From NCBI GenBank assembly GCA_964650355.1, contig CAZYTL010000003.1:65750-129749 (forward strand): a stretch of DNA of 64,000 nucleotides, written 5' to 3'. A model generated the notes under the pieces. The model saw only the letters and a program-made list of their open reading frames with translations. It was not told the DNA's origin and ran no database searches. Position 1 is the stretch's first letter, and each line of letters begins with the position of its first letter. The translations under genes and the position numbers were made by a program. This DNA comes from an uncultured Gammaproteobacteria bacterium. GTDB taxonomy: Bacteria > Patescibacteriota > Microgenomatia > CAYXHB01 > CAZYTL01. Positions 2,153 to 24,890 of this stretch are shown here, piece after piece.

Positions 2153-2324
2153 TGCTTAAATAATTTTAAAATTGCAGTATATACTCCGTAGCTGAATTTT
2201 GGTCCATGTAGATATATTCTTAGTAAACTAAGCTTCGTAGTATTATACGAGATTATATTGGCGAAGGAGTATATCTAGGCAGATTCACCCCTCATCCGGC
2301 AGCGGGCCCCGAAGTATAACCTTG

Positions 2325-2396
2325 TGGACGCGCCTGGATTCGAACCAGGGACCATTCGTGTATAAGACGAACGCTCTACCGCTGAGCTACGCGTCC
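2325..2396 (-). tRNA. tRNA with anticodon UAU (decodes AUA; Ile by sequence)
   Basis: A manual cloverleaf fits the reverse complement: 7-bp acceptor stem, D-arm GCTC/GAGC with GG in the loop, anticodon stem TTCGT/ACGAA, loop CTTATAC (U33, A37), T-loop TTCGAAT, discriminator A. CCA is not encoded. Confidence 0.8.
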
Positions 2397-8158: not shown

Positions 8159-9565
8159 CTACTTCGGATACAACTTTCGCAGATCAGCATCATACTGTTG
8201 CCAATTCTCTTGCCTCAACTGATCAAACTTCGCCCAAATTCTCCGGTACGTATCCTCATACTCCCTCTCCAAATACCCTGCCCCGGACACACTTCCCCTT
8301 TGCTCTCCAATATACAACCTCAACCTATCCATATAGTTCAGTGCCCGTAAATACTGCACATTCACACACTGCCCGTAACCGCTCAAATTATCCAAAATAC
8401 ACCGGTTCACCTGGTCCCATAGCCTGATCGCCTCTGCAGACAGTACCAGCGCCTTTTCCAACTCCTCTCGACTATTCGCGGCGTAATATCGCCCTCCGCC
8501 CGATTGCGCGATCAACTCCAACTGCTGCTTCTCCTCTTCGCTCACTACCAATCCCACCACATTCGTCACCACTTCTATCCCTGACTCATTCAACTGCTCG
8601 GCCACCTGAATCGGGTCCCCTCCGCACGTCTCCTTACCGTCAGACAATAAGATCACAAAATTCTGTGCTGCTTCTTTACCTCTTAATAAACTCCCCGCCA
8701 TCTCCAAGGCCTTGGCAATCCCTGTCCACCCCGCCGGCTTAATCCCCTGTACTAAACTCTCAGTTGCTGGCACATCCACCGGCCCTAGCGGCTGCACCAA
8801 CTCCACCCCTTCGCAAGATGCCTGCTTATCTGCCTCCTCAGAACTTCCTTTATGTCCGTAAACAATCACCCCTACATTGGCAAAACTCGGCAACCCGCTA
8901 TCCAGTAAATCCAACAACGCTTTCTGCGCCGAATCCCACTTTGTCACCCCTTCTAACTTATCCCCCATCGATCCTGAAGCATCTAACAAAAACAACAAAT
9001 TGATTTCCAACCTGGCCCTGGGCACCGTAGGAAAGTCACCACATCCCAACTGTCTCACACAGTCATTGGCATTCGCATCATACCCCAAAATCTCTTCCAG
9101 CCGGTCCGGCAAGGCATCCCCGTCGTTATCTACTCCCAACTCTTCCTTAGTCAGCAACTGCACTTCCTCCCCAGATCCCTCCACCACTGACTCTCCCGTT
9201 GGCTGCGCAGACGGGGTAGCCACCTGCTGTCCCGCTGGCCGCGTCACTTGAGGAGCTGGCAGCAACCTTCCCAACACCACAAATCCTACTCCCAGACCTA
9301 AACTCACCATCAAAATCGAAAACAGCATTGCCTTCGGTCCCTTTGACCTATGCTTTCCTGCCGCCCGCACCGGTGCGCTTACCCCTCCCCCTTGCGACTT
9401 TCCCCTTCCTAGACTGGCCACCTTCGGCAACTCAATCTTCGGCAACCCCTTCTGCCCAATACCTGCTCTTCCACTATCACCCGTATTCCCTGCGCCCTCA
9501 GCAGGGCTTGTTTTCACCCCTGGATCATTCCCTGTTCCCTGTTCTTGTGAATCATTCTCTGCCAT
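8159..9565 (-). CDS. von Willebrand factor type A (VWA) domain membrane protein
   Basis: MIDAS-like LLFLLDASGSMG...ILLSDGKETCGG. N-terminal TM helix after a Gly/Ser-rich leader. Confidence 0.7.
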   Translation of the reverse strand: MAENDSQEQGTGNDPGVKTSPAEGAGNTGDSGRAGIGQKGLPKIELPKVASLGRGKSQGGGVSAPVRAAGKHRSKGPKAMLFSILMVSLGLGVGFVVLGRLLPAPQVTRPAGQQVATPSAQPTGESVVEGSGEEVQLLTKEELGVDNDGDALPDRLEEILGYDANANDCVRQLGCGDFPTVPRARLEINLLFLLDASGSMGDKLEGVTKWDSAQKALLDLLDSGLPSFANVGVIVYGHKGSSEEADKQASCEGVELVQPLGPVDVPATESLVQGIKPAGWTGIAKALEMAGSLLRGKEAAQNFVILLSDGKETCGGDPIQVAEQLNESGIEVVTNVVGLVVSEEEKQQLELIAQSGGGRYYAANSREELEKALVLSAEAIRLWDQVNRCILDNLSGYGQCVNVQYLRALNYMDRLRLYIGEQRGSVSGAGYLEREYEDTYRRIWAKFDQLRQENWQQYDADLRKLYPK

Positions 9566-9631
9566 ACCCCTACTTTAACCCAACCAATCTCGGACTCGCA
9601 ACCCGTATGTATGACAAATCTTCAATTGCCA

Positions 9632-10468
9632 CTAGCCTCCCCCACTCGATTTTGCTCCACTTACATTGGTTGACCATTCCAATACTCTCTCCAATGCCTT
9701 CTCCATCGCCATTTCCCAAAAAGTCACATGCTTCTCTCGTTCCTTATCCAGTAAACCTTTCACCTCTTTTAATGTCATCTCCCATTCCGGGATATAAAAC
9801 ACATGATCGAGTGGCGCTCCCATCACCATTTCCCCTCGTGGTTCCGTCAACATCACTCCCCGCATCCTCCCATCAACATACTCCACCTCTCCCTCTTCTC
9901 CCCTTGTTATCTGCTCCATCTGTCCCTTATCTGTTTCCATCTGCCTGCCCGCCGTAACTTTAGTGTTGGCGGGTGTGCTCTCCTCTTGCTTTGCAGGAGG
10001 AGGAAACAACAATCCCACCACACACCGCCACTCTGCTCCCCGCGCCTCCGGAGGTATCGCCTGCATCCGCTCCAAACAATACTCTACAATCTCCTCATCC
10101 CTCATCACCGTTACCCCGTCCCTCCATCTCCTCATCAGCGCTCCCGGCTCTCGTCCCAAAGCATCAATACTCAAACCTCTCTCTTCCGCCATAATTATAT
10201 AATCGTCATTCCGTAAAGCCGTTGCTTCGTTAGATTGTTCCTCTGTATTTTCCTCTCGCTGTTTTTCGACTCTTAAGCTCTTTAGCCTCACCTCATACAT
10301 TCTGCACCTCACTGCCACATTCGCCTCCAACGTCCTCCCCGTATCCGGCAAATCTATCTCTATCCCCAACTCCTTCGGCATCTCCACCTCCACCTTATAC
10401 TTACCAAACCTCTCCCTTACCTCCAACAACTTCTTCTTATCCTCTGTCACATAGAGAACCTTGACCAT
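9632..10468 (-). CDS. Ham1/RdgB-like non-canonical purine NTP pyrophosphatase paralog with a ~100-aa acidic insertion
   Basis: N-terminus LYVTEDKKKLLEVRERF and C-terminus TEPRGEMVMGAPLDHVFYIPEWEMTLKE...ALERV align with the clear Ham1 gene at 43932..44480. The central insert is low-complexity. Confidence 0.5.
   Translation of the reverse strand: MVKVLYVTEDKKKLLEVRERFGKYKVEVEMPKELGIEIDLPDTGRTLEANVAVRCRMYEVRLKSLRVEKQREENTEEQSNEATALRNDDYIIMAEERGLSIDALGREPGALMRRWRDGVTVMRDEEIVEYCLERMQAIPPEARGAEWRCVVGLLFPPPAKQEESTPANTKVTAGRQMETDKGQMEQITRGEEGEVEYVDGRMRGVMLTEPRGEMVMGAPLDHVFYIPEWEMTLKEVKGLLDKEREKHVTFWEMAMEKALERVLEWSTNVSGAKSSGGG
9986..9998. repeat. palindrome variant CTTGCTTTGCAGG, in-frame in the Ham1-like paralog (PPPAKQEE)
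   Basis: Degenerate copy sharing the GCTTTGCAG core. Confidence 0.55.
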
Positions 10469-14263: not shown

Positions 14264-14806
14264 TTAAATCTGCACTTCCCTTCCCTTCGTTGTATCCCTC
14301 CCTCCTTGCCACTGACCTCTGTACAAATTCACCGCCTCTCCTTTAATCTCTACAAAAAACACCTGCACAAACCTGGCCCCCAATTCCATCTCTACCGAAA
14401 TATTTCCCGCATTAAACATTCCAAAATACAACGCTCCCCTATACCCGGGATCCGCAATCCAAGCTCTCAGCATCAAACCGCTCCTCACTGTCGTCCCCCT
14501 AGGCTTGATTATTGCCGTTATATTCTTGGGCAAATCCACCTCTTCAATCGTCTTAGTCAAATAATACTTACCCGGCTCAAACACAAACTTCGTCACCCTC
14601 TTCGGATCATAAGCCGCCAACTCCACCAGATCAGGCGTCTCCCGTTCCTCAATCCCGATAAACGCTTTCCCTTTCAATTCAAATACCTTATCCAACCGCA
14701 AATCAAACACACACCCTTCAGGACTCTCCAATTCCCTTTCCGCCAATCCCGTCACCAAAGCATGTTTCTTCATTAACTTTCGCAATTCCGAATGTCCCAA
14801 AATCAT
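14264..14806 (-). CDS. dUTPase/dCTP-deaminase-fold protein, paralog A (lacks the Dcd catalytic Glu)
   Basis: VFDLRLD, KPRGTTVRSG, DPGYRGALYFGMFN, RFVQVFF and YRGQWQGG align to Dcd/Dut motifs. GMFN replaces the TLExxN motif, so the Glu is absent. Confidence 0.65.
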   Translation of the reverse strand: MILGHSELRKLMKKHALVTGLAERELESPEGCVFDLRLDKVFELKGKAFIGIEERETPDLVELAAYDPKRVTKFVFEPGKYYLTKTIEEVDLPKNITAIIKPRGTTVRSGLMLRAWIADPGYRGALYFGMFNAGNISVEMELGARFVQVFFVEIKGEAVNLYRGQWQGGRDTTKGREVQI

Positions 14807-14907
14807 AAACTACATTATATATTCCCCATACTCTAAATGCGGAACAATTTATCTATCCCCAAATACCCTCTATTTTTAGAATCCTAATTCCATTATATAA
14901 TTAATCC

Positions 14908-15831
14908 ATGGAAACTGTACCCTTGAAAGAAAAAGTTATAAAAACAATCAGACCACAAGAGATAACTAATTTATTTGAAAAATTTCCAGTAGGCAGCTTT
15001 GGCGAAAATTTTGACCAATTTAGTCTAAAAGATGCTGTCTCGGCCAGATATAAACAGGTATTTCGCCGTAAAGGATATCGAGCATTAATGAATGAAATTA
15101 ATCAACAAATCGATCAAGGAACCGAATCATATGAACAAGAGGCAGTAAAACACTTAGAAAGAATAAGATCAAACGTAGAATACATCCAAACTGACGAAGT
15201 ACAACAAATCGCTCACGAACTAACAGAGAAACAACCAAATTTAGATCCCAAATGGTTGTTGGATGACGCTTTATCCGGACGACAGATGGATCAAATCATC
15301 CACACTGACGAGCGAGGTCGGAGAATTACTCGGTTCAGGCTACTTGATAACTATAGGCCACAATCAAATAGAAACCAGCCTCTTTGCGGTTTCAACTTTC
15401 CTCCTTTACACGGAGAGCATTCAAATATCACGGCTCTCTTTGTAAATGGTGAGCTAGACGAATTACAAACAGGAGGAATTTCCCATATCAACAGCCTAAA
15501 ATTCGAAAACGGTCAAGTAACTTCTCTTTCTTATTCTGGCGTAGATTGGTTTGATACCTCTGAAGAAACCATCAAAGCGAAACATAGATTACCAGACAAA
15601 GTCCAATTACAAAAATTTGGAAATTTCTTTACACTTCATTTCCCGGAACTAGTGTCCCAAACTGCGAACTCCCGAACCTTCAGACTCAAAGCGTCTCCTA
15701 TGTGGAAAGACACAGGCCACAATCAACCGCAAGAAAATACTTATACAGTTACCTTAAACCAAGATGGGCAGATTACAGAAATTAGAAACGGATGGGATAA
15801 ACCTCTCCTCACTCCGGCAACCGCCAGTTAA
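14908..15831 (+). CDS. hypothetical protein on an AT-rich compositional island
   Basis: 307-aa ORF with no recognisable motif. Composition is AT-rich with balanced G/C, unlike flanking genes. Confidence 0.45.
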   Translation: METVPLKEKVIKTIRPQEITNLFEKFPVGSFGENFDQFSLKDAVSARYKQVFRRKGYRALMNEINQQIDQGTESYEQEAVKHLERIRSNVEYIQTDEVQQIAHELTEKQPNLDPKWLLDDALSGRQMDQIIHTDERGRRITRFRLLDNYRPQSNRNQPLCGFNFPPLHGEHSNITALFVNGELDELQTGGISHINSLKFENGQVTSLSYSGVDWFDTSEETIKAKHRLPDKVQLQKFGNFFTLHFPELVSQTANSRTFRLKASPMWKDTGHNQPQENTYTVTLNQDGQITEIRNGWDKPLLTPATAS

Positions 15832-15974
15832 ACTAGTTAAACTCTACACTTCGCAAGTACTCCATCCGCTCACCTTATACTTCCAACACCTAGTCTCCTT
15901 TCCTTTTATCTCACTTCTGTTTAAATCGTTTCTTCATTAGACATAATTCCCCTATCAAGCTACAATAAATTCCA

Positions 15975-16811
15975 ATGCTTCCTCTAGACCTTCAATACCA
16001 AAAAATACTCCGCCAACTCATGACCAAAGGCATTGAAGAAACCAACCAACGCACCGGACACCAAACCAAAAGCCTTCCCGGGATTACCGTCCAAATCGAT
16101 CTCCGACACAGCTTCCCCTTACTCACCTTGCGAAAAATACCCATCAAAATCTTCGTCGCCGAACAAATCTGGTTCATCATGGGCAGCCGCCGGCCCGACG
16201 AATTCCTCAAAGAATTCACCGGAATCTGGGACGATTTCACCAACATTGGAGGCGTGGTTACCGTTGCCTACGGCTACCGCATGCGCCACCACTTTGGTAG
16301 AGACCAACTGGCCTTACTCATTAAACTGCTGGAAAAGGACCCCAGTTCTCGCCACGGAGTTATTGTCTTCTGGGACCCGGGTGATGACGGACTCGCCCAA
16401 AGCAGAAAAAAGAAAAACGTCCCCTGTCCCTACACCTTCACCACCAATATCATCGGCGGACAACTGCACTTCCATTTAATTGTTCGCTCCAACGACATGA
16501 TTCTAGGTTTTCCTCACGACTTAGCCGGCTTTGCTCTCCTGGCCCATATCCTAGCTTCCAGACTTGGCGTCCAACCCGGTATCTTTACCCATTCCATCAG
16601 CAACGCTCATGTTTACGACATCCACTATTCAGCAGCCCAAACCATGATCCACAGAAAAATTAATCACCCCCCCATAAAACTTACCACCCAACCTGACTAC
16701 TTCTCCCGCGCAGAACATGGAGATCGCACCCTGGTCAGTGGTATAGTAAGTCAGTTACAATCCCAATATCATCCCGGCCCACCCATCAAAGGCCTCAAAA
16801 TCGTCTTATAA
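15975..16811 (+). CDS. thymidylate synthase (ThyA) family enzyme; predicted deoxycytidylate-specific methylase/hydroxymethylase rather than canonical ThyA
   Basis: ThyA-fold motifs RTGHQT, DPSSRH and catalytic Cys in VPCPYTF. VRSNDMILGFPHDLAGFALL aligns to E. coli [20 protein letters not shown]. Asp sits at the Asn177 position, and the RSND motif matches T4 gp42 RSNDVVFGFRND. Confidence 0.8.
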   Translation: MLPLDLQYQKILRQLMTKGIEETNQRTGHQTKSLPGITVQIDLRHSFPLLTLRKIPIKIFVAEQIWFIMGSRRPDEFLKEFTGIWDDFTNIGGVVTVAYGYRMRHHFGRDQLALLIKLLEKDPSSRHGVIVFWDPGDDGLAQSRKKKNVPCPYTFTTNIIGGQLHFHLIVRSNDMILGFPHDLAGFALLAHILASRLGVQPGIFTHSISNAHVYDIHYSAAQTMIHRKINHPPIKLTTQPDYFSRAEHGDRTLVSGIVSQLQSQYHPGPPIKGLKIVL

Positions 16812-16834
16812 TTACTACCAACTCTCACCACCAC

Positions 16835-17479
16835 ATGACCACCGACAAAATCCTCACCCACAAACAAATCCTTGAGCGCCTTGCTCAAAAAAACATCAAC
16901 TTCGACCCTCCTCTGGATAAATTCCAAATCCAGTCCCATTCCGTCGACCTCAGAATCGGCTTCACCTTCCTCATGCCCAAATATTGGCAACTCGCTCCTG
17001 AAGGTCGGGTCGCCATTCACTCCGATTACACCCAAACCAACGACAACTTTACTGTCATCGAACTCGAGCCCGGACAATTTTTCGAAATTCTCCCCAACGA
17101 ATACGTCGCTTTCTCTACTCTGGAAAAAATCAGTCTCCCTCCTGACCTCATGGCCATCCTCTACCCCCGCTCATCAGTCAACCGCCGGGGTTTATCAGTC
17201 GATCTCAGCGGCATCGTTGACGCCGGCTACGAAGGCCACCTTACTATTCCCGTGAGAAATAATACTCCCACCCAAACCATCAGAGTCTATCCCGGTGAAA
17301 GATTCTGCCAACTTGTTTTTCACACCCTTTCCCAGCCGGTCAAACCCGTTACCAGTCGCTTCCACCGCAAAGACGTGGCCCTTACTTTTGGCAGCCAAAA
17401 GGAAAAGGACCCCCGGGAAACCAAATTAATTAAATCAGGCAAAATCAGCCAATTGAAAGACAAATATACTCTCAAATAA
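16835..17479 (+). CDS. dUTPase/dCTP-deaminase-fold protein, paralog B (lacks the Dcd catalytic Glu)
   Basis: SVDLRIG, PRSSVNRRG, VDAGYEGHLTIPVRNN and RFCQLVF fit the fold. TLE is replaced by TIPVRN. Confidence 0.65.
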   Translation: MTTDKILTHKQILERLAQKNINFDPPLDKFQIQSHSVDLRIGFTFLMPKYWQLAPEGRVAIHSDYTQTNDNFTVIELEPGQFFEILPNEYVAFSTLEKISLPPDLMAILYPRSSVNRRGLSVDLSGIVDAGYEGHLTIPVRNNTPTQTIRVYPGERFCQLVFHTLSQPVKPVTSRFHRKDVALTFGSQKEKDPRETKLIKSGKISQLKDKYTLK

Positions 17480-17486
17480 CCTGTTC

Positions 17487-17996
17487 ATGATCATTGCCAT
17501 CGCCGCCACCTCTTTAGATGGTAAAATTGCCCTTCATTCCCAAGATGACACCTCCTGGAGCTCCCCGGAAGATAAAAAATTATTCAAACAAGCCACCCAA
17601 AAAGCCGGTGTCCTGGTCATTGGTCGCACCACCTGGAAAACCATCAACCGCCCTCTCCCCGACAGACAAATCATCGTCCTCACCCGCAAACCACCAACCT
17701 CTAAATACCCTACCGTCGAATTCACCCATCTTCCTCCTCAAAAATTAATCACCGAACTGACTTCTCGAGGCTACCGCGATATCTTCTTCGCGGGGTGCCA
17801 GCAAATCTACACCCTCTTTTTAACCCAAAAACTCATCGACCAGCTCTGGATCACCATCGAACCCTACCTCTTCGGTCACCCAGCTCTCAGTTTATTCTCC
17901 TCTCTCCCCGCCTCGCCTATCAAACTCAAACTCCTCACCCTCCAACGGCTCAACCCCAACTCAATCCACCTCAAGTACCAAATCATCTATGAGTAA
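17487..17996 (+). CDS. dihydrofolate-reductase-like reductase (RibD C-terminal domain type)
   Basis: IAATSLDGKIA...VLVIGRTTW...RPLPDRQIIVLTR. Overlaps the next gene by 8 nt (ATGA-type coupling). Confidence 0.65.
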   Translation: MIIAIAATSLDGKIALHSQDDTSWSSPEDKKLFKQATQKAGVLVIGRTTWKTINRPLPDRQIIVLTRKPPTSKYPTVEFTHLPPQKLITELTSRGYRDIFFAGCQQIYTLFLTQKLIDQLWITIEPYLFGHPALSLFSSLPASPIKLKLLTLQRLNPNSIHLKYQIIYE

Positions 17997-18609
17997 CCGC
18001 CCCCCTTTCCTTATCTCATCCCAAAAAAATCAAGGAGCCGAAATCGTCTCTCTCACTTACCCCCACGGCACTTCTCCTCAACCATCAGCCCTTGATCTCT
18101 CCGCCCTTGTTTTATTCACTCAAAAAGCCCTCGACCACCAAACCCAAGAAATTTATCTCCGCCTGCCCTACAAATCTCCCCTCATCACCATCGAATATGG
18201 AAACAGCCCTTTTTTACACCAAGCGCAACAAATTGCCCGCCAACACTCCTTGGATCCCGGACATCCCACTGCCACCGTATTAGTTAAAGGCCATCAAATC
18301 ATCAGCTCCGGAGCTAACGGCTCCACCTATCATGATCAATATGGCTGTAGAAGAAAAGAACTAAACATCCCTACCGGCCAAGGATATGAACTCTGTGAAG
18401 GATGCCATCCCAAAAACCACTCCGAACCTACCGCCATCAGAGCCGCAGCAGCCGCTCACAAAACCCACCTCCTTTCCGAAGCCACCGCCTATCTCTATGG
18501 CCACTGGTGGTGTTGCCAACCCTGCTGTGCTGCCCTGGAACAAGCCGGCATAACCAAAGTCGTCTTTTCCCTCCCCTGGACCCAAAAATTTCTGGAGATT
18601 GATATCTAA
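17989..18609 (+). CDS. dCMP deaminase (cytidine/deoxycytidylate deaminase zinc-binding fold)
   Basis: Zinc ligand motifs H(S)E in CHPKNHSEPTAI and PCxxC in CCQPCCAALEQAGI. Confidence 0.8.
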   Translation: MSNRPPFLISSQKNQGAEIVSLTYPHGTSPQPSALDLSALVLFTQKALDHQTQEIYLRLPYKSPLITIEYGNSPFLHQAQQIARQHSLDPGHPTATVLVKGHQIISSGANGSTYHDQYGCRRKELNIPTGQGYELCEGCHPKNHSEPTAIRAAAAAHKTHLLSEATAYLYGHWWCCQPCCAALEQAGITKVVFSLPWTQKFLEIDI

Positions 18610-19064
18610 CCCTCCGTCCCGAAAAACACCACCGATCCCACCTTCATCCCCGAGTACAACTTCACCTTAAACGGCCCTACGTTAGAAATTTCCAAAGTCA
18701 ATTTATTGGACCTTCCCGGATCACAAAAATATGACGCCTGATAAATCGCCACCCCTAATTTTGCCAACTTTGTCCTCCCATCGAGCATTGCCGCTATCTT
18801 TCTTGATAAAGTAATCGTCTCTTTGGTCTCACTCACCACAAACATCCCTGGCTCCAACAGAAAACCCTCATCCTCCATCTCTGTCTCTTCGTACTCCGGA
18901 TCCGTCTTTTCTCGCAAATCAACCACCTGCCCCGGCTTGGGTATCCAGATTTTACTTCCTAATCGCACCTCATAAACCATCCCGTCGATTAACTCTTCAT
19001 CAAAAGGTTCAATGGAAATCTCCTCCTCCGCCATCGCCTGTTTAATCTGCACCCCACTTAACAT
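18606..19064 (-). CDS. dCTP deaminase (Dcd)-like, short form with catalytic TLE motif
   Basis: EVRLGSKIW and DPGRSNKLTLEISN retain the Dcd Glu. Its stop overlaps the stop of the convergent dCMP deaminase gene. Confidence 0.6.
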   Translation of the reverse strand: MLSGVQIKQAMAEEEISIEPFDEELIDGMVYEVRLGSKIWIPKPGQVVDLREKTDPEYEETEMEDEGFLLEPGMFVVSETKETITLSRKIAAMLDGRTKLAKLGVAIYQASYFCDPGRSNKLTLEISNVGPFKVKLYSGMKVGSVVFFGTEG

Positions 19065-21677: not shown

Positions 21678-24371
21678 CTAGCACTCCGAATAACCGCATC
21701 CGTGACACGTCTTGCATCCCATTTCATAGACCAGTGTCGCATTTCCGCAATCCGGACAAATATCAGCTGACCTGGCCACCAAATGCATCCCCGCTTCCCT
21801 TGATTTTCCATCAGTCACCGGGGGGTCAACTGCCTCATCTTCCCCTTTTTCATCATCTGTAATCTTCAATTGCATCCCGTCCTCAGCCGTTGACTCTTGA
21901 TGCTTGGAATCTGTCGTTACTGCTTGGTGTTGCTCCCCAAACCCAATCAGTCCCATATCTATCGCCATCGCCTTAGCCACCGCATCCGGCAGAGAATAAA
22001 CCTTTCTTGTCCCGAACCCCACTGACCTGGAACTACCGATCCCGGCTAACTGATCCACAATCAACTTTGCTCTCTCACTCGAAGACAAATTACTGTTAAA
22101 CTTCAAAGACTTTGATATCAACCGCCCCAATGCCTCTGCCATCGCCTGAATATCACTCCCTGCTCTGCCAATATTAATAAACACTTCCACCGGCGATCCG
22201 TCCTCATCATGATTCACCGTCACAAACGCTCTTCCGATCGGTGTATCCATCTTATAAGTCGCTCCCACCACCTTCATCGGCCTCAACCACGAAACTGGTT
22301 TATCCTCCATAGCTTTAGCAAAGGAGGGCTGGCCCTCTGTCGTTCCTGCTAAGACGGATTTTTCCGCCAACCCATTTCCTTTATGCTCTTTATCTGATGC
22401 GCTAGCGCGAATCAGAGTTCCCTCTCTCGACCCCTCCCTCATATACGAAATCCCTTTACAACCTGTTTTGTAAGCCAACTCATATAACCTTTTCACCTCT
22501 TCCACCGTATGAGTCTTCGGGGCATTCACTGTCTTACTAATCGATGAATCAGTATACTTCTGAATCAAAGCCTGAATCTCCACATGCTCTTCAGGACTCA
22601 AATCATCCGCTACCACAAAATACTCCGGCAAACTTCCTTTCTCCAAATTCCCCTCTACCAATCCGCCGGAGGCACCATCATTTTGCTTTTTGCTTTTTGC
22701 TTTTTGCTTTTGTTTCATCCACTCCTCATAGAGTGGATGAAACATCGTCCTCTCTCCCAATCGATCCTTCTGAGTATAAACAAACGAAAACACCGGTTCT
22801 ATCCCCGAAGACGCTCCCGCCAGCAACGCAATCTTCCCTGTCGGCGCTTCCGTCAACAGCAATGCATTCCTTATCCCGTTCTGTCGGATCCTTTCTCTTA
22901 TCCCTTCAGGTATCGTCTTCATAAACCCGCTCGCCAAATACTGGTCAGTCTTAAACATGGGAAACGCTCCCTTCTCCTTAGCCAGCTCTATCGATGTCTC
23001 ATAAGCCACATCTCTCAACATCTTGTAAATCTTCTCAATCATCTCCAAAGATTCTGGAGATCCGTATCTCAGCTTCATCTTCATCAGCGCGTCCGCCAAC
23101 CCCAACGTTCCCAATCCTAACCGCCTCTCTCGCAACTGCCTCTTCTGAATCTGATTATATAAATAATTCTCTGCATCTACCGCATTATCCAAAAATCTCA
23201 CCCCCACTTTAATCAACCCTCTATAGTCTTCCCAGTCAAACCCTGGCCCCCCATTCTGCTTTGCAGAAACCAAGGCCGACAAATTTATCGACGACAGATT
23301 GCACACTCCGAACGCCGGCAACGGTTGCTCCCCGCATGGATTAGTAGAAACATTCTTCTCAAAATACCACGTATTATTCATCCTATTCGCCCTGTCCATA
23401 AAATAAATCCCCGGCTCCGCGCTTCCCCACGCCGACTCACAAATCAGATTCCACAACTCTCTCGCTTTTATGGTTTTGTACACTTTTACCGGATACCCTT
23501 TCTTCTCCCACTCTTCCAAGTCTCCGCCCCATTCACCCCGATATTTGGCAAAATCAGTCTCTGGAAATTTCAACTCCCAATCGCCATCCTCCTCCACTGC
23601 TTTCATCAACTTGTCCGACACACACACACTTAAATTCGCCCCCAACATCTTTCCCTGCTCTTTCTTTACCATAATAAACTCTTCTACATCCGGGTGCCAA
23701 TCCCACAACATCATCATCAACGCCCCCCTCCTCGTCCCTCCTTGCTGAATAATATCGTGCGCCGTCACCGAATATAATTCCGCCCAGCTCACCGATCCTG
23801 AACTCGTTCCGTTCACCGCCTTCAAATAAGACCCTCTCGGCCGTAAACTCGACAAATTAAATCCCACTCCTCCTCCCCGAGCACTAATCTCCGTCACCCT
23901 TTCCAAAGTCTTAATAATCCCCTTCCGCGTGTCCTCCGGGTCAGGAATCACAAAACAATTAATCATCGTCGTTTCCGTTCCCGTCCCTGCCGAAGTTAGG
24001 AACCTCCCCGCCGGACAAAAACGAAAATTTTTCATTGCCGCATAAAACTTCTCTTCCCATTCCTCTCTTAACTCAGTAGTCTTCTCCTCTTGAGCCACCG
24101 CCCAGGCCACCCTCCGCCACATCTGTTCCGGAAATTTCTCCATCGGTTCCCCTTTCTTATTCTTCAACGCATATCGATCTAAAAACAACTGCCTCCGAAT
24201 CCCCTCCAACTCCGTTCCTTGATCCATCGCTACAAAATGCCTACCATTCTCTTTTCCTTGATCTCGCCTTTGCTCTCCTGCCACTCTATTCCCACCTCGC
24301 ACATCTCCACCCCCTCTATTCTGATTAGTATTGATTACCTGATCCGGATAACCATTATTTGTCATAAACAA
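21678..24371 (-). CDS. nrdJ: class II ribonucleotide reductase paralog (no ATP-cone) with C-terminal Zn-ribbon
   Basis: NPCGEQPLPAFGVCNLSS. C-terminal CPDCG...CKTCHGCG. Same KQKAKSKKQ insert encoded by an identical TTTTGCTTTTTGC repeat. Confidence 0.85.
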   Translation of the reverse strand: MFMTNNGYPDQVINTNQNRGGGDVRGGNRVAGEQRRDQGKENGRHFVAMDQGTELEGIRRQLFLDRYALKNKKGEPMEKFPEQMWRRVAWAVAQEEKTTELREEWEEKFYAAMKNFRFCPAGRFLTSAGTGTETTMINCFVIPDPEDTRKGIIKTLERVTEISARGGGVGFNLSSLRPRGSYLKAVNGTSSGSVSWAELYSVTAHDIIQQGGTRRGALMMMLWDWHPDVEEFIMVKKEQGKMLGANLSVCVSDKLMKAVEEDGDWELKFPETDFAKYRGEWGGDLEEWEKKGYPVKVYKTIKARELWNLICESAWGSAEPGIYFMDRANRMNNTWYFEKNVSTNPCGEQPLPAFGVCNLSSINLSALVSAKQNGGPGFDWEDYRGLIKVGVRFLDNAVDAENYLYNQIQKRQLRERRLGLGTLGLADALMKMKLRYGSPESLEMIEKIYKMLRDVAYETSIELAKEKGAFPMFKTDQYLASGFMKTIPEGIRERIRQNGIRNALLLTEAPTGKIALLAGASSGIEPVFSFVYTQKDRLGERTMFHPLYEEWMKQKQKAKSKKQNDGASGGLVEGNLEKGSLPEYFVVADDLSPEEHVEIQALIQKYTDSSISKTVNAPKTHTVEEVKRLYELAYKTGCKGISYMREGSREGTLIRASASDKEHKGNGLAEKSVLAGTTEGQPSFAKAMEDKPVSWLRPMKVVGATYKMDTPIGRAFVTVNHDEDGSPVEVFINIGRAGSDIQAMAEALGRLISKSLKFNSNLSSSERAKLIVDQLAGIGSSRSVGFGTRKVYSLPDAVAKAMAIDMGLIGFGEQHQAVTTDSKHQESTAEDGMQLKITDDEKGEDEAVDPPVTDGKSREAGMHLVARSADICPDCGNATLVYEMGCKTCHGCGYSEC
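22681..22712. repeat. tandem (TTTTTGC)n microsatellite inside nrdJ paralog 2; near-identical tract at about 20335-20366 inside nrdJ paralog 1
   Basis: Encodes KQKAKSKKQ and KKAKSKKQ on the minus strand. Confidence 0.8.
23253..23268. repeat. 16-bp palindrome ATTCTGCTTTGCAGAA, in-frame within nrdJ paralog 2 (peptide SAKQN)
   Basis: Exact palindrome. The other copies are at about 41001-41016, 45921-45936, 47957-47973 and variants at 9986-9998 and 13017-13031. Confidence 0.8.
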
Positions 24372-24440: not shown

Positions 24441-24890
24441 TTACGCACTCTCTTTTTCTATAATCTTCTCAAAATCATTTAAATCTTCGAATTCCAAATA
24501 CACACTCGCAAATCGCAGCCAGGCTACTTTATCCAGCTTCTTAATCCTTCTCAACACTACCTGGCCCACCTTTTTACTGGGAATCTCTGCATCGCCTATC
24601 CTTAACAACTCCCGTTCTACCGCATCCACCAGTGAGTCAATCTTCTCTACCGCCACGGGCCGCTTATTAAACGCCCTCCGAATCCCTTCCTCCAACTTCT
24701 GCCGATCAAATGGCTCTCTTTTCCCGTCCTTCTTCACCACCATCAACGCTTGGCCTTCAACCCGTTCATAAGTCGTAAACCTTCGCTTACACTTCCCGCA
24801 CTCTCTCCTCCTCCGCAGAGACTCCCCGTCAATCCCTGCCCTAGACTCCAATACCGAAGTTTCCGTTGAATTACAAAAAGGACATTTCAT
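24441..24890 (-). CDS. nrdR: NrdR transcriptional repressor
   Basis: N-terminal zinc ribbon MKCPFCNSTETSVLESR...CGKCKRRF plus an ATP-cone. Sits upstream of the two nrdJ genes on the same strand. Confidence 0.9.
   Translation of the reverse strand: MKCPFCNSTETSVLESRAGIDGESLRRRRECGKCKRRFTTYERVEGQALMVVKKDGKREPFDRQKLEEGIRRAFNKRPVAVEKIDSLVDAVERELLRIGDAEIPSKKVGQVVLRRIKKLDKVAWLRFASVYLEFEDLNDFEKIIEKESA

Follow-up and report, generated by a model that had tools for sequence, protein, structure and literature searches.

A predicted dCMP-methylating ThyA homologue in a conserved Patescibacteria gene module points to a possible thymidylate route through 5-methyl-deoxycytidine nucleotides

The 64,000-nucleotide stretch of contig CAZYTL010000003.1 analysed here (the window) encodes, in four co-directional and tightly packed genes, a ThyA-like protein (ThyD), a Dcd-fold protein in which the catalytic glutamate is replaced (DcdB), a dihydrofolate reductase (DHFR) and a divergent zinc deaminase (Deam). 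With a probability of roughly 0.55, judged from sequence comparison, this ThyD–DcdB–DHFR–Deam module serves as a housekeeping route to thymidylate that passes through 5-methyl-deoxycytidine (5-methyl-dC) nucleotides and bypasses deoxyuridine monophosphate (dUMP). In such a role it would correspond, within cells, to the phage Xp12 pathway, and it is conserved in Patescibacteria and present in an altered form in Anaerolineae. To our knowledge, cells are universally taken to make thymidylate from dUMP with ThyA or ThyX. Full-text searches of the literature turned up the phage pathway, but no account of a cellular deoxycytidine monophosphate (dCMP) methylase, a 5-methyl-dCMP route or a ThyA with aspartate at position 177 (Asp177) in Patescibacteria (candidate phyla radiation, CPR) or Chloroflexi. 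What is probably new here is the cellular, phylum-wide and seemingly housekeeping setting, together with a Dcd-fold dCTPase that lacks the catalytic glutamate, the Xp12-type 5-methyl-dC route itself being known.

The genes of the module, with window coordinates, strand and family matches, are as follows:

15975–16811, plus strand: ThyD, ThyA-like, 278 amino acids (Pfam Thymidylat_synt PF00303, E = 1.8e-51)
16835–17479, plus strand: DcdB (paralog B), Dcd fold with Glu replaced by Pro (Pfam DCD, E = 3.3e-32)
17487–17996, plus strand: DHFR of the Thermotoga type (Pfam DHFR_1, E = 9.2e-17; RibD_C, E = 8e-16)
17989–18609, plus strand: Deam, divergent zinc deaminase of the dCMP-deaminase subfamily (Pfam dCMP_cyt_deam_1, E = 9.1e-12)

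ThyD and DcdB are separated by 23 nt and DcdB and DHFR by 7 nt, while DHFR and Deam overlap by 8 nt. An earlier note on this DNA had named these open reading frames (ORFs) along with two further Dcd-fold paralogs, and all were found where it had placed them. The operon that it described holds for the four genes above; its paralog A (here DutA), which it put just upstream, lies on the minus strand, divergent from the ThyD operon and outside it.

In the scheme that follows, every substrate and product of which we infer from the observed folds, residue states, gene linkage and fusions, DcdB would hydrolyse deoxycytidine triphosphate (dCTP) to dCMP and pyrophosphate, probably subject to inhibition by thymidine triphosphate (dTTP) by analogy with Dcd enzymes. 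ThyD would use Cys151 and 5,10-methylene-tetrahydrofolate for the reductive methylation of dCMP at C5, giving 5-methyl-dCMP and dihydrofolate (DHF), a step suggested by its active-site signature, its phylogeny and a characterised relative. DHFR, the identity of which is clear, would in this role regenerate tetrahydrofolate, and Deam would deaminate a 5-methyl-dC nucleotide to a thymidine nucleotide, acting either on the monophosphate or, as with the phage enzyme, on the triphosphate after phosphorylation. The net conversion would run from dCTP to thymidine monophosphate (dTMP) or dTTP with no uracil intermediate.

ThyD is likely to act on dCMP, judging from the residues that line its active site, and is predicted to be a dCMP C5-methyltransferase (5-methyl-dCMP synthase) that produces DHF. 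Alignment with phmmer against solved thymidylate synthases (TSs) placed the D of RSNDMILGFPHD opposite the N of the motif RS(A/C)D(I/V)FLG(V/L)PFN, which is Asn177, and the PCP of ThyD opposite the PCH of those enzymes, so that proline occupies the position of His147. Aligning ThyD by MAFFT with E. coli ThyA, T4 gp42 and the Xp12 enzyme gave the same placement (Asp177, within FPHD, and Pro147). Both substitutions had been read from the sequence in the earlier note; of the checks that it had called for, the alignments uphold Asp177 and the phylogeny places ThyD in a clade with Xp12. Among the twelve first-shell residues within 6 Å of C5 of dUMP (list from PMC13326640), six differ between ThyD and E. 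coli ThyA:

Position 142: Ala in E. coli ThyA, Lys in ThyD
Position 143: Leu in E. coli ThyA, Asn in ThyD
Position 147: His in E. coli ThyA, Pro in ThyD
Position 165: Gln in E. coli ThyA, Val in ThyD
Position 168: Cys in E. coli ThyA, Asn in ThyD
Position 177: Asn in E. coli ThyA, Asp in ThyD

Unchanged are Trp80, Tyr94, Cys146, Ser167, Asp169 and Gly173; Glu58, Arg166, His207 and Tyr209 are also retained and Arg126 is present. ThyD shares with canonical ThyA (EC 2.1.1.45), which works alongside Dcd/Dut or dCMP deaminase and FolA, the fold, the catalytic Cys, Glu, Tyr and Arg, folate binding by Asp169, the C-terminal tail, the predicted production of DHF and the pairing with a DHFR. In contrast, it lacks the canonical set Asn177/His147/Leu143/Gln165, which forms the hydrogen-bond network to O4 and N3 of uracil, and its Dcd partner is without the catalytic glutamate. 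Positions 147 and 177 discriminate cytosine-modifying phage TS homologues in metaviromes (PMC8670742), and the single substitution N177D or N229D makes a TS a dCMP methylase, according to work cited in a passage of the same source. Similarly, Ser167 and Arg126 mark a deoxyribo substrate and Asp177 a cytosine substrate (PMC5175136), and ThyD has all three.

This combination of residues is not peculiar to the window. Asp177 and PCP occur in 120 of the 120 closest ThyD homologues (60–76% identity), and the Asp177/Pro147 pair is therefore a family trait and not a chance substitution; the ThyA-like C-terminal tail IKGLKIVL is kept in ThyD and in the same 120 proteins. More distant relatives were sought in a scan of 1.84 billion cluster representatives, of which the best 150 representatives at 50% identity were analysed. 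Nearly all of these were of the Asp type, and the full-length Asp177 proteins almost always carried Asn143 and a residue other than Gln at 165, and mostly Pro147. The Asn177 proteins, the first of which appeared at about E = 1e-35, had Leu143, His147 and Gln or Met at 165, with one exception (P0390). The AlphaFold2 (AF2) model of ThyD (predicted local distance difference test, pLDDT, 90.6) superposed over its full length on TS structures with template-modelling (TM) scores of 0.8–0.86, and its structural matches included 1njc, the complex of the L. casei N229D TS with dCMP.

The best phage matches to ThyD were the TS homologues of Xp12-like siphoviruses (36–38% identity). The Xp12 protein (MT664984) reads KNVPCP...LRSSDLFVGLPYD, which reproduces the K142/N143/P147/D169/D177 pattern of ThyD, so that the Asp177/Pro147 pair reported earlier proves to be part of a fuller signature (K142, N143, P147, V165, N168, D169, D177) matching that of the Xp12 homologue. 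Like the Xp12-type enzymes, ThyD has the TS fold, the catalytic set, Asp177, Pro147, Asp169, a non-acidic residue at 143 and a hydrophobic residue in place of Gln165 (Val in ThyD, Leu in Xp12). The two proteins also share a WDPxxDGL...KKNVPCP insertion and a YGYRWRxHFGRDQ block at about 36% identity, while Arg127 is His in ThyD. In a neighbour-joining (NJ) tree of 135 sequences, a crude method used without bootstrap support, ThyD and the Xp12 enzyme were grouped in a clade of 109 leaves, all of the Asp type, to which canonical ThyA did not belong.

Xp12 DNA carries 5-methylcytosine (5mC) in place of cytosine, and its TS homologue, together with five of seven metaviromic Asp177 homologues, was found by liquid chromatography–mass spectrometry to make 5-methyl-dCMP (bioRxiv 10.1101/2024.12.05.627091, a 2024 preprint). 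According to the same preprint, neighbouring enzymes of the dCMP-deaminase family convert 5-methyl-dCTP to dTTP, and the phage pathway thus yields both 5mC DNA and thymidine made from 5-methyl-dC nucleotides. In the Xp12 genome, an NTP pyrophosphohydrolase, the TS homologue, a dCMP deaminase and a DHFR-like gene lie side by side, the same four adjacent functions as in the window, with DHFR genes that are weakly homologous. The two modules differ in that the pyrophosphatase of Xp12 is of the MazG/PRA-PH type and not homologous to the Glu-less Dcd fold of the window, and in that Xp12 uses its pathway for anti-restriction, whereas the module in the window is cellular, vertically conserved and probably housekeeping.

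A cytosine-specific ThyA homologue might alternatively be a dCMP hydroxymethylase of the T4 gp42 or MilA type, or a 5-hydroxy-dCMP synthase, with a product destined for a modified base or a secondary metabolite. ThyD has Asp177 in common with T4 gp42 and MilA/BcmA and the RSND motif in common with gp42, and a cytosine nucleotide substrate, known for those enzymes, is predicted for ThyD. However, hydroxymethylases are distinguished by an acidic residue at 143 and 5-hydroxy-dCMP synthases by D169N (PMC13326640), while ThyD has Asn143, as in Xp12, and not Asp or Glu, and keeps Asp169 where the 5-hydroxylases have Asn. The C-terminal tail conserved in ThyD is absent in T4 gp42, the residues Ser167 and Arg126 of ThyD are replaced by Ala and Lys in MilA, and neither T4 gp42 nor MilA was among the 50 best structural matches to the ThyD model. 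In addition, the linkage to DHFR implies the production of DHF, which hydroxymethylases do not cause. Because residues 143 and 169, the C-terminal tail and the DHFR linkage all oppose them, we regard the hydroxymethylase and hydroxylase readings as highly improbable. The likeness to T4 gp42 drawn in the earlier note thus extends to Asp177 and RSND, but the closest analogue of ThyD is the Xp12 enzyme.

In DcdB, the catalytic glutamate of Dcd enzymes (E138 in E. coli, E129 in M. tuberculosis, within the TLExxN motif) is replaced by proline, the site reading TIPVRN where Dcd reads TLELSN, while its nucleotide and pyrophosphatase motifs are retained. The proline was kept in 77 of 77 syntenic orthologues and in at least 112 of 120 database homologues, all of which are annotated as dCTP deaminase; DcdB itself scores 114 bits on TIGR02274 (dCTP_deam), above the cut-off of 92.8, despite lacking the glutamate. 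The bifunctional Dcd-Dut enzymes of M. tuberculosis and M. jannaschii have the same fold and motifs and release a monophosphate from dCTP at the entry to dTTP synthesis, as DcdB would too. Since Dcd-Dut both deaminates dCTP and releases the monophosphate, and since the residue for deamination is present as Glu in Dcd-Dut but is Pro throughout the DcdB family, DcdB is most simply read as a non-deaminating dCTP pyrophosphatase (dCTP to dCMP and pyrophosphate), the predicted product being dCMP and not dUMP. No DcdB relatives were found in viral contigs in a scan of IMG/VR. Dictyostelium Dcd2 nests among Dcd sequences of CPR and Chloroflexi (PMC10733785).

The best solved relative of the reductase at 17487–17996 is T. 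maritima DHFR (1cz3, E = 2.2e-31), which aligns over its full length (residues 2–166), and by this measure the protein is a true DHFR; it is also weakly similar to the DHFR-like gene of Xp12. A true DHFR beside ThyD fits a reductive, DHF-producing methylase, as had been suggested. In Deam, the zinc motifs H144-x-E146 and C176..C179 (PCxxC) are invariant, and there are extra cysteines at C120, C136 and C139. The best PDB matches of its family profile are dCMP deaminases, all of them weak (2hvv at 1e-7, followed by 4p9c, 1vq2 and 2w4l), and it scores 19 bits on the ComEB equivalog model against a cut-off of 219. Its AF2 model (pLDDT 94) returned only generic matches to the cytidine deaminase (CDA) fold with Foldseek (TadA, T4 cd, RibD and guanine deaminase), which do not resolve the substrate. 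By analogy with the phage enzymes, Deam is predicted to convert a 5-methyl-dC nucleotide to a thymidine nucleotide, and the earlier suggestion of such a deaminase thereby gains a documented phage precedent. Residues 1–60 of Deam (17989–18170) include an N-terminal extension of about 45–60 amino acids that has no counterpart in most family members (about 165 amino acids). It is modelled by AF2 as a confident beta-sheet domain (pLDDT 80–96), and the weak similarity to ribosomal protein eS24 folds returned by Foldseek is probably meaningless.

Gene linkage was assessed in 80 genomes from Patescibacteria and Anaerolineae (Chloroflexi), using about 8 kb on each side of the ThyD orthologue and counting partners within 5 kb. 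DcdB was found near ThyD in 76 of the 80 loci, Deam in 63 and DHFR in 56, and all three partners were present in 49. Fusion proteins from metagenomes join the same functions, and include a deaminase fused to an Asp-type TS (P0262), a PRA-PH pyrophosphatase fused to an Asp-type TS (P0324), DHFR fused to Deam (P0126 and P0128) and Deam fused to an AdkA-like nucleoside monophosphate (NMP) kinase (P0148 and P0163). No ThyX motif and no Asn-type TS was detected by regular-expression scans, which covered the 64 kb of the window and about 16 kb around ThyD in each of the 80 other genomes, apart from one spurious ORF of 89 amino acids, in keeping with the absence of thyX from the window reported earlier.

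The eight loci in which DcdB was the only partner all belong to Anaerolineae (L029, L032, L035, L036, L041, L046, L061 and L062) and share a layout of ribonucleotide reductase (RNR), DutA-like gene, ThyD, a gap and DcdB. In L046, for example, the order is RNR, short-chain dehydrogenase (SDR), DutA-like gene, nucleoside-2-deoxyribosyltransferase-like (NDT-like) gene, ThyD, a Cys-less TS paralog and DcdB. The SDR is a possible substitute for DHFR and the NDT-like gene a possible dNMP N-glycosidase. The TS paralog (8838–9887 of the locus, plus strand) is a second, divergent TS-fold protein of 349 amino acids that has GIPP in place of VPCP, and so no catalytic Cys, and carries Asp at 177.

Two further Dcd-fold paralogs lie close to the module but outside it:

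14264–14806, minus strand: DutA (paralog A), Glu-less Dcd/dUTPase fold (Pfam DCD, E = 2.7e-22; dUTPase, E = 3e-9)
18606–19064, minus strand: DcdC (paralog C), 152 amino acids, keeps the catalytic Glu (Pfam DCD, E = 5.4e-32)

DutA has Gly at the Glu site (YFGMFN), where its best PDB relatives, 9ln0 and 8y1w, have Met, and it scores 74.5 bits on NF002598 (archaeal dUTPase), below the cut-off. It is probably an archaeal-type dUTPase for pool sanitation and an accessory gene. DcdC, which is convergent with Deam and adjoins the module in only 1 of the 80 loci, retains the catalytic Glu in TLEISN and scores 110.7 bits on TIGR02274. It has no C-terminal arm, its alignment to M. tuberculosis Dcd-Dut ending near residue 150 of 190, and it falls about 40 residues short of the C-terminal lid found in characterised Dcd enzymes. 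DcdC could be a dCTP deaminase, or possibly a differently gated 5-methyl-dCTP deaminase, or a truncated relic. The earlier reading of the Glu site in the three paralogs (lost in A and B, kept as TLEISN in C) thus agrees with the alignments, and its proposal that A and B are dNTP pyrophosphatases, for example acting on dCTP, fits B, as a predicted dCTPase that accompanies ThyD, whereas A is more likely an archaeal-type dUTPase than a dCTPase.

The principal alternative is that the module carries out ordinary synthesis, in which ThyD methylates dUMP despite Asp177, DcdB supplies dCMP or is itself a dUTPase, Deam is a normal dCMP deaminase and DHFR recycles folate. Several observations weigh against a route that avoids dUMP, and some of them also favour this alternative. 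The same gene set can be read in the canonical order, with deamination before methylation (DcdB to dCMP, Deam to dUMP, TS to dTMP), and the best solved relatives of Deam are ordinary dCMP deaminases. Deam was also rejected as an orthologue of the Xp12 deaminase: the two belong to different branches of the dCMP-deaminase family with no significant similarity, and are analogous rather than orthologous. DutA and DcdC probably both make dUMP, which would be useless if ThyD rejects it. In the Anaerolineae loci, no BLAST relative of the Deam or DHFR of the window was found near ThyD, and the pathway may differ there because an SDR, an NDT-like gene and a Cys-less TS paralog take their place in L046. 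The N229D variant of L. casei TS studied by Liu and Santi in 1992–93 reportedly retains some activity on dUMP, and a natural Asp enzyme could for this reason accept both dUMP and dCMP.

Public resources likewise favour ordinary synthesis. ThyD passes the NCBIfam equivalog TIGR03284 (thym_sym; 121.9 bits against a cut-off of 108.35), its homologues are annotated everywhere as thymidylate synthase, and thyA is treated as part of the minimal Patescibacteria repertoire (PMC12455944). In contrast, ThyD falls far below the cut-offs of the six other ThyA equivalog models that it matches (NF00249x/NF010393; for example, 140.5 against 327), and also below that of TIGR03283. Residues 143, 147, 165 and 177 have all switched to the state of the verified Xp12 5-methyl-dCMP synthase, Asp177 and Pro147 are invariant in the closest homologues, and the proteins with the canonical Asn177 combination among the 150 representatives cluster apart from the clade of ThyD and Xp12. 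Considered together with the cited effect of N177D or N229D alone, these features make it rather unlikely that the module simply methylates dUMP.

A third possibility, also raised in the earlier note, is that the module modifies the genome as in Xp12, with 5-methyl-dCMP phosphorylated and incorporated so that a large part or all of the genomic cytosine is 5mC, DcdB depleting dCTP and Deam diverting part of the flux to thymidine. Xp12, in whose DNA cytosine is replaced by 5mC, has the four functions next to one another, the destruction of dCTP is a phage means of excluding canonical cytosine (as stated in the introduction of PMC13326640), and Deam occurs fused to NMP kinases (P0148 and P0163). 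However, the module in the window encodes neither a dedicated dNMP kinase nor a transferase (glycosyl or other), and its housekeeping distribution across thousands of cellular genomes and its linkage to a deaminase fit the supply of thymidylate. The GC skew of the window is not common to other ThyD-bearing loci and so is no signature of such a pathway. In addition, we know of no report of cytosine replacement from base-composition analysis of cultured Anaerolineae or from long reads of cultured Saccharibacteria, which would count against genome modification if those strains carry ThyD. Because of the housekeeping distribution, the link to the deaminase and the lack of a dedicated kinase in the module, the evidence favours the thymidylate route over DNA modification, and wholesale replacement of cytosine appears improbable. 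A stronger and still less probable proposal is that thymidylate is never made from dUMP in Patescibacteria and some Anaerolineae and that some of them also incorporate 5-methyl-dCTP at replication, a substantial part or the whole of their genomic cytosine being 5mC; on this long shot, this would be the first case of a replicatively substituted base in cellular organisms.

If the module works as proposed, a bacterial superphylum and part of the Chloroflexi make thymine by methylation of dCMP followed by deamination, a route for which phage Xp12 and its relatives have been the only known examples. Public annotation of the ThyD and DcdB families is probably wrong in a systematic way, because both proteins exceed equivalog cut-offs and yet lack the specificity residue (ThyD) or the catalytic residue (DcdB); thousands of database entries for ‘thymidylate synthase’ and ‘dCTP deaminase’ would then be in error even though both proteins pass NCBIfam thresholds. 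Metabolic reconstructions of these unculturable bacteria would need revision, and the module would suggest an origin for the phage 5mC pathway, or the reverse. Cells with such a module might also contain 5-methyl-dCTP among their dNTPs, which would affect mutation, restriction and epigenetic sequencing, and new dCMP methylases and deaminases of 5mC nucleotides could be drawn from them as tools.

The window, from an ultra-small bacterium of the Patescibacteria type, is cellular DNA: besides two RNRs and a single tRNA, it encodes penicillin-binding proteins, a class-V aminotransferase resembling cysteine desulfurases and a class I aminoacyl-tRNA synthetase, and the close homologues of its genes all come from Patescibacteria (CPR) metagenome-assembled genomes. 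The surrounding 8–26 kb form a nucleotide-metabolism island with Ham1, HIT, two Nudix genes, Ppx/GppA, two class II RNRs and NrdR. The remaining features near the module are:

14908–15831, plus strand: ORF of 307 amino acids between DutA and ThyD, no family match
15938–15966, plus strand: promoter-like site TAGACA-17-TACAAT, 10/12 match, ending 9 nt before the ThyD start codon
19068–21581, minus strand: class II (B12) RNR paralog 1 (Pfam; ATP-cone)
21678–24371, minus strand: class II (B12) RNR paralog 2 (Pfam; TSCPD domain)
24441–24890, minus strand: NrdR (Pfam), immediately upstream of the two tandem RNR paralogs

The 307-residue ORF, upstream of which DutA lies, had no Pfam or NCBIfam match and no BLAST match in the 80 related loci. 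A promoter and terminator scan found as many sites in the region as expected by chance, and the promoter-like site before ThyD is weakly supported. The two class II RNRs and NrdR provide the context for the module, as a source of the dNTPs that would enter it, and both RNR paralogs have Cys-rich, zinc-ribbon-like C-terminal tails.

GC skew is extreme across the whole window (1–64000), with 2-kb values between −0.23 and −0.64 that average about −0.41; it spans genes of both orientations, and amino-acid composition is visibly biased by strand. Among the 80 related loci, an extreme value was found only in L004 (+0.34; Candidatus Shapirobacteria contig JBAZSP010000025.1), the rest lying within about ±0.2, and the skew was accordingly rejected as a signature of a 5mC pathway. 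The Ham1/ITPase homologue (9632–10468, minus strand) has 278 amino acids against a profile of 186 positions, which indicates a large insertion. The sole tRNA in the window (2324–2396, minus strand) is a tRNA-Ile with the anticodon TAT (UAU); AUA codons in bacteria are usually read by a lysidine-modified CAU anticodon, and UAU is uncommon.

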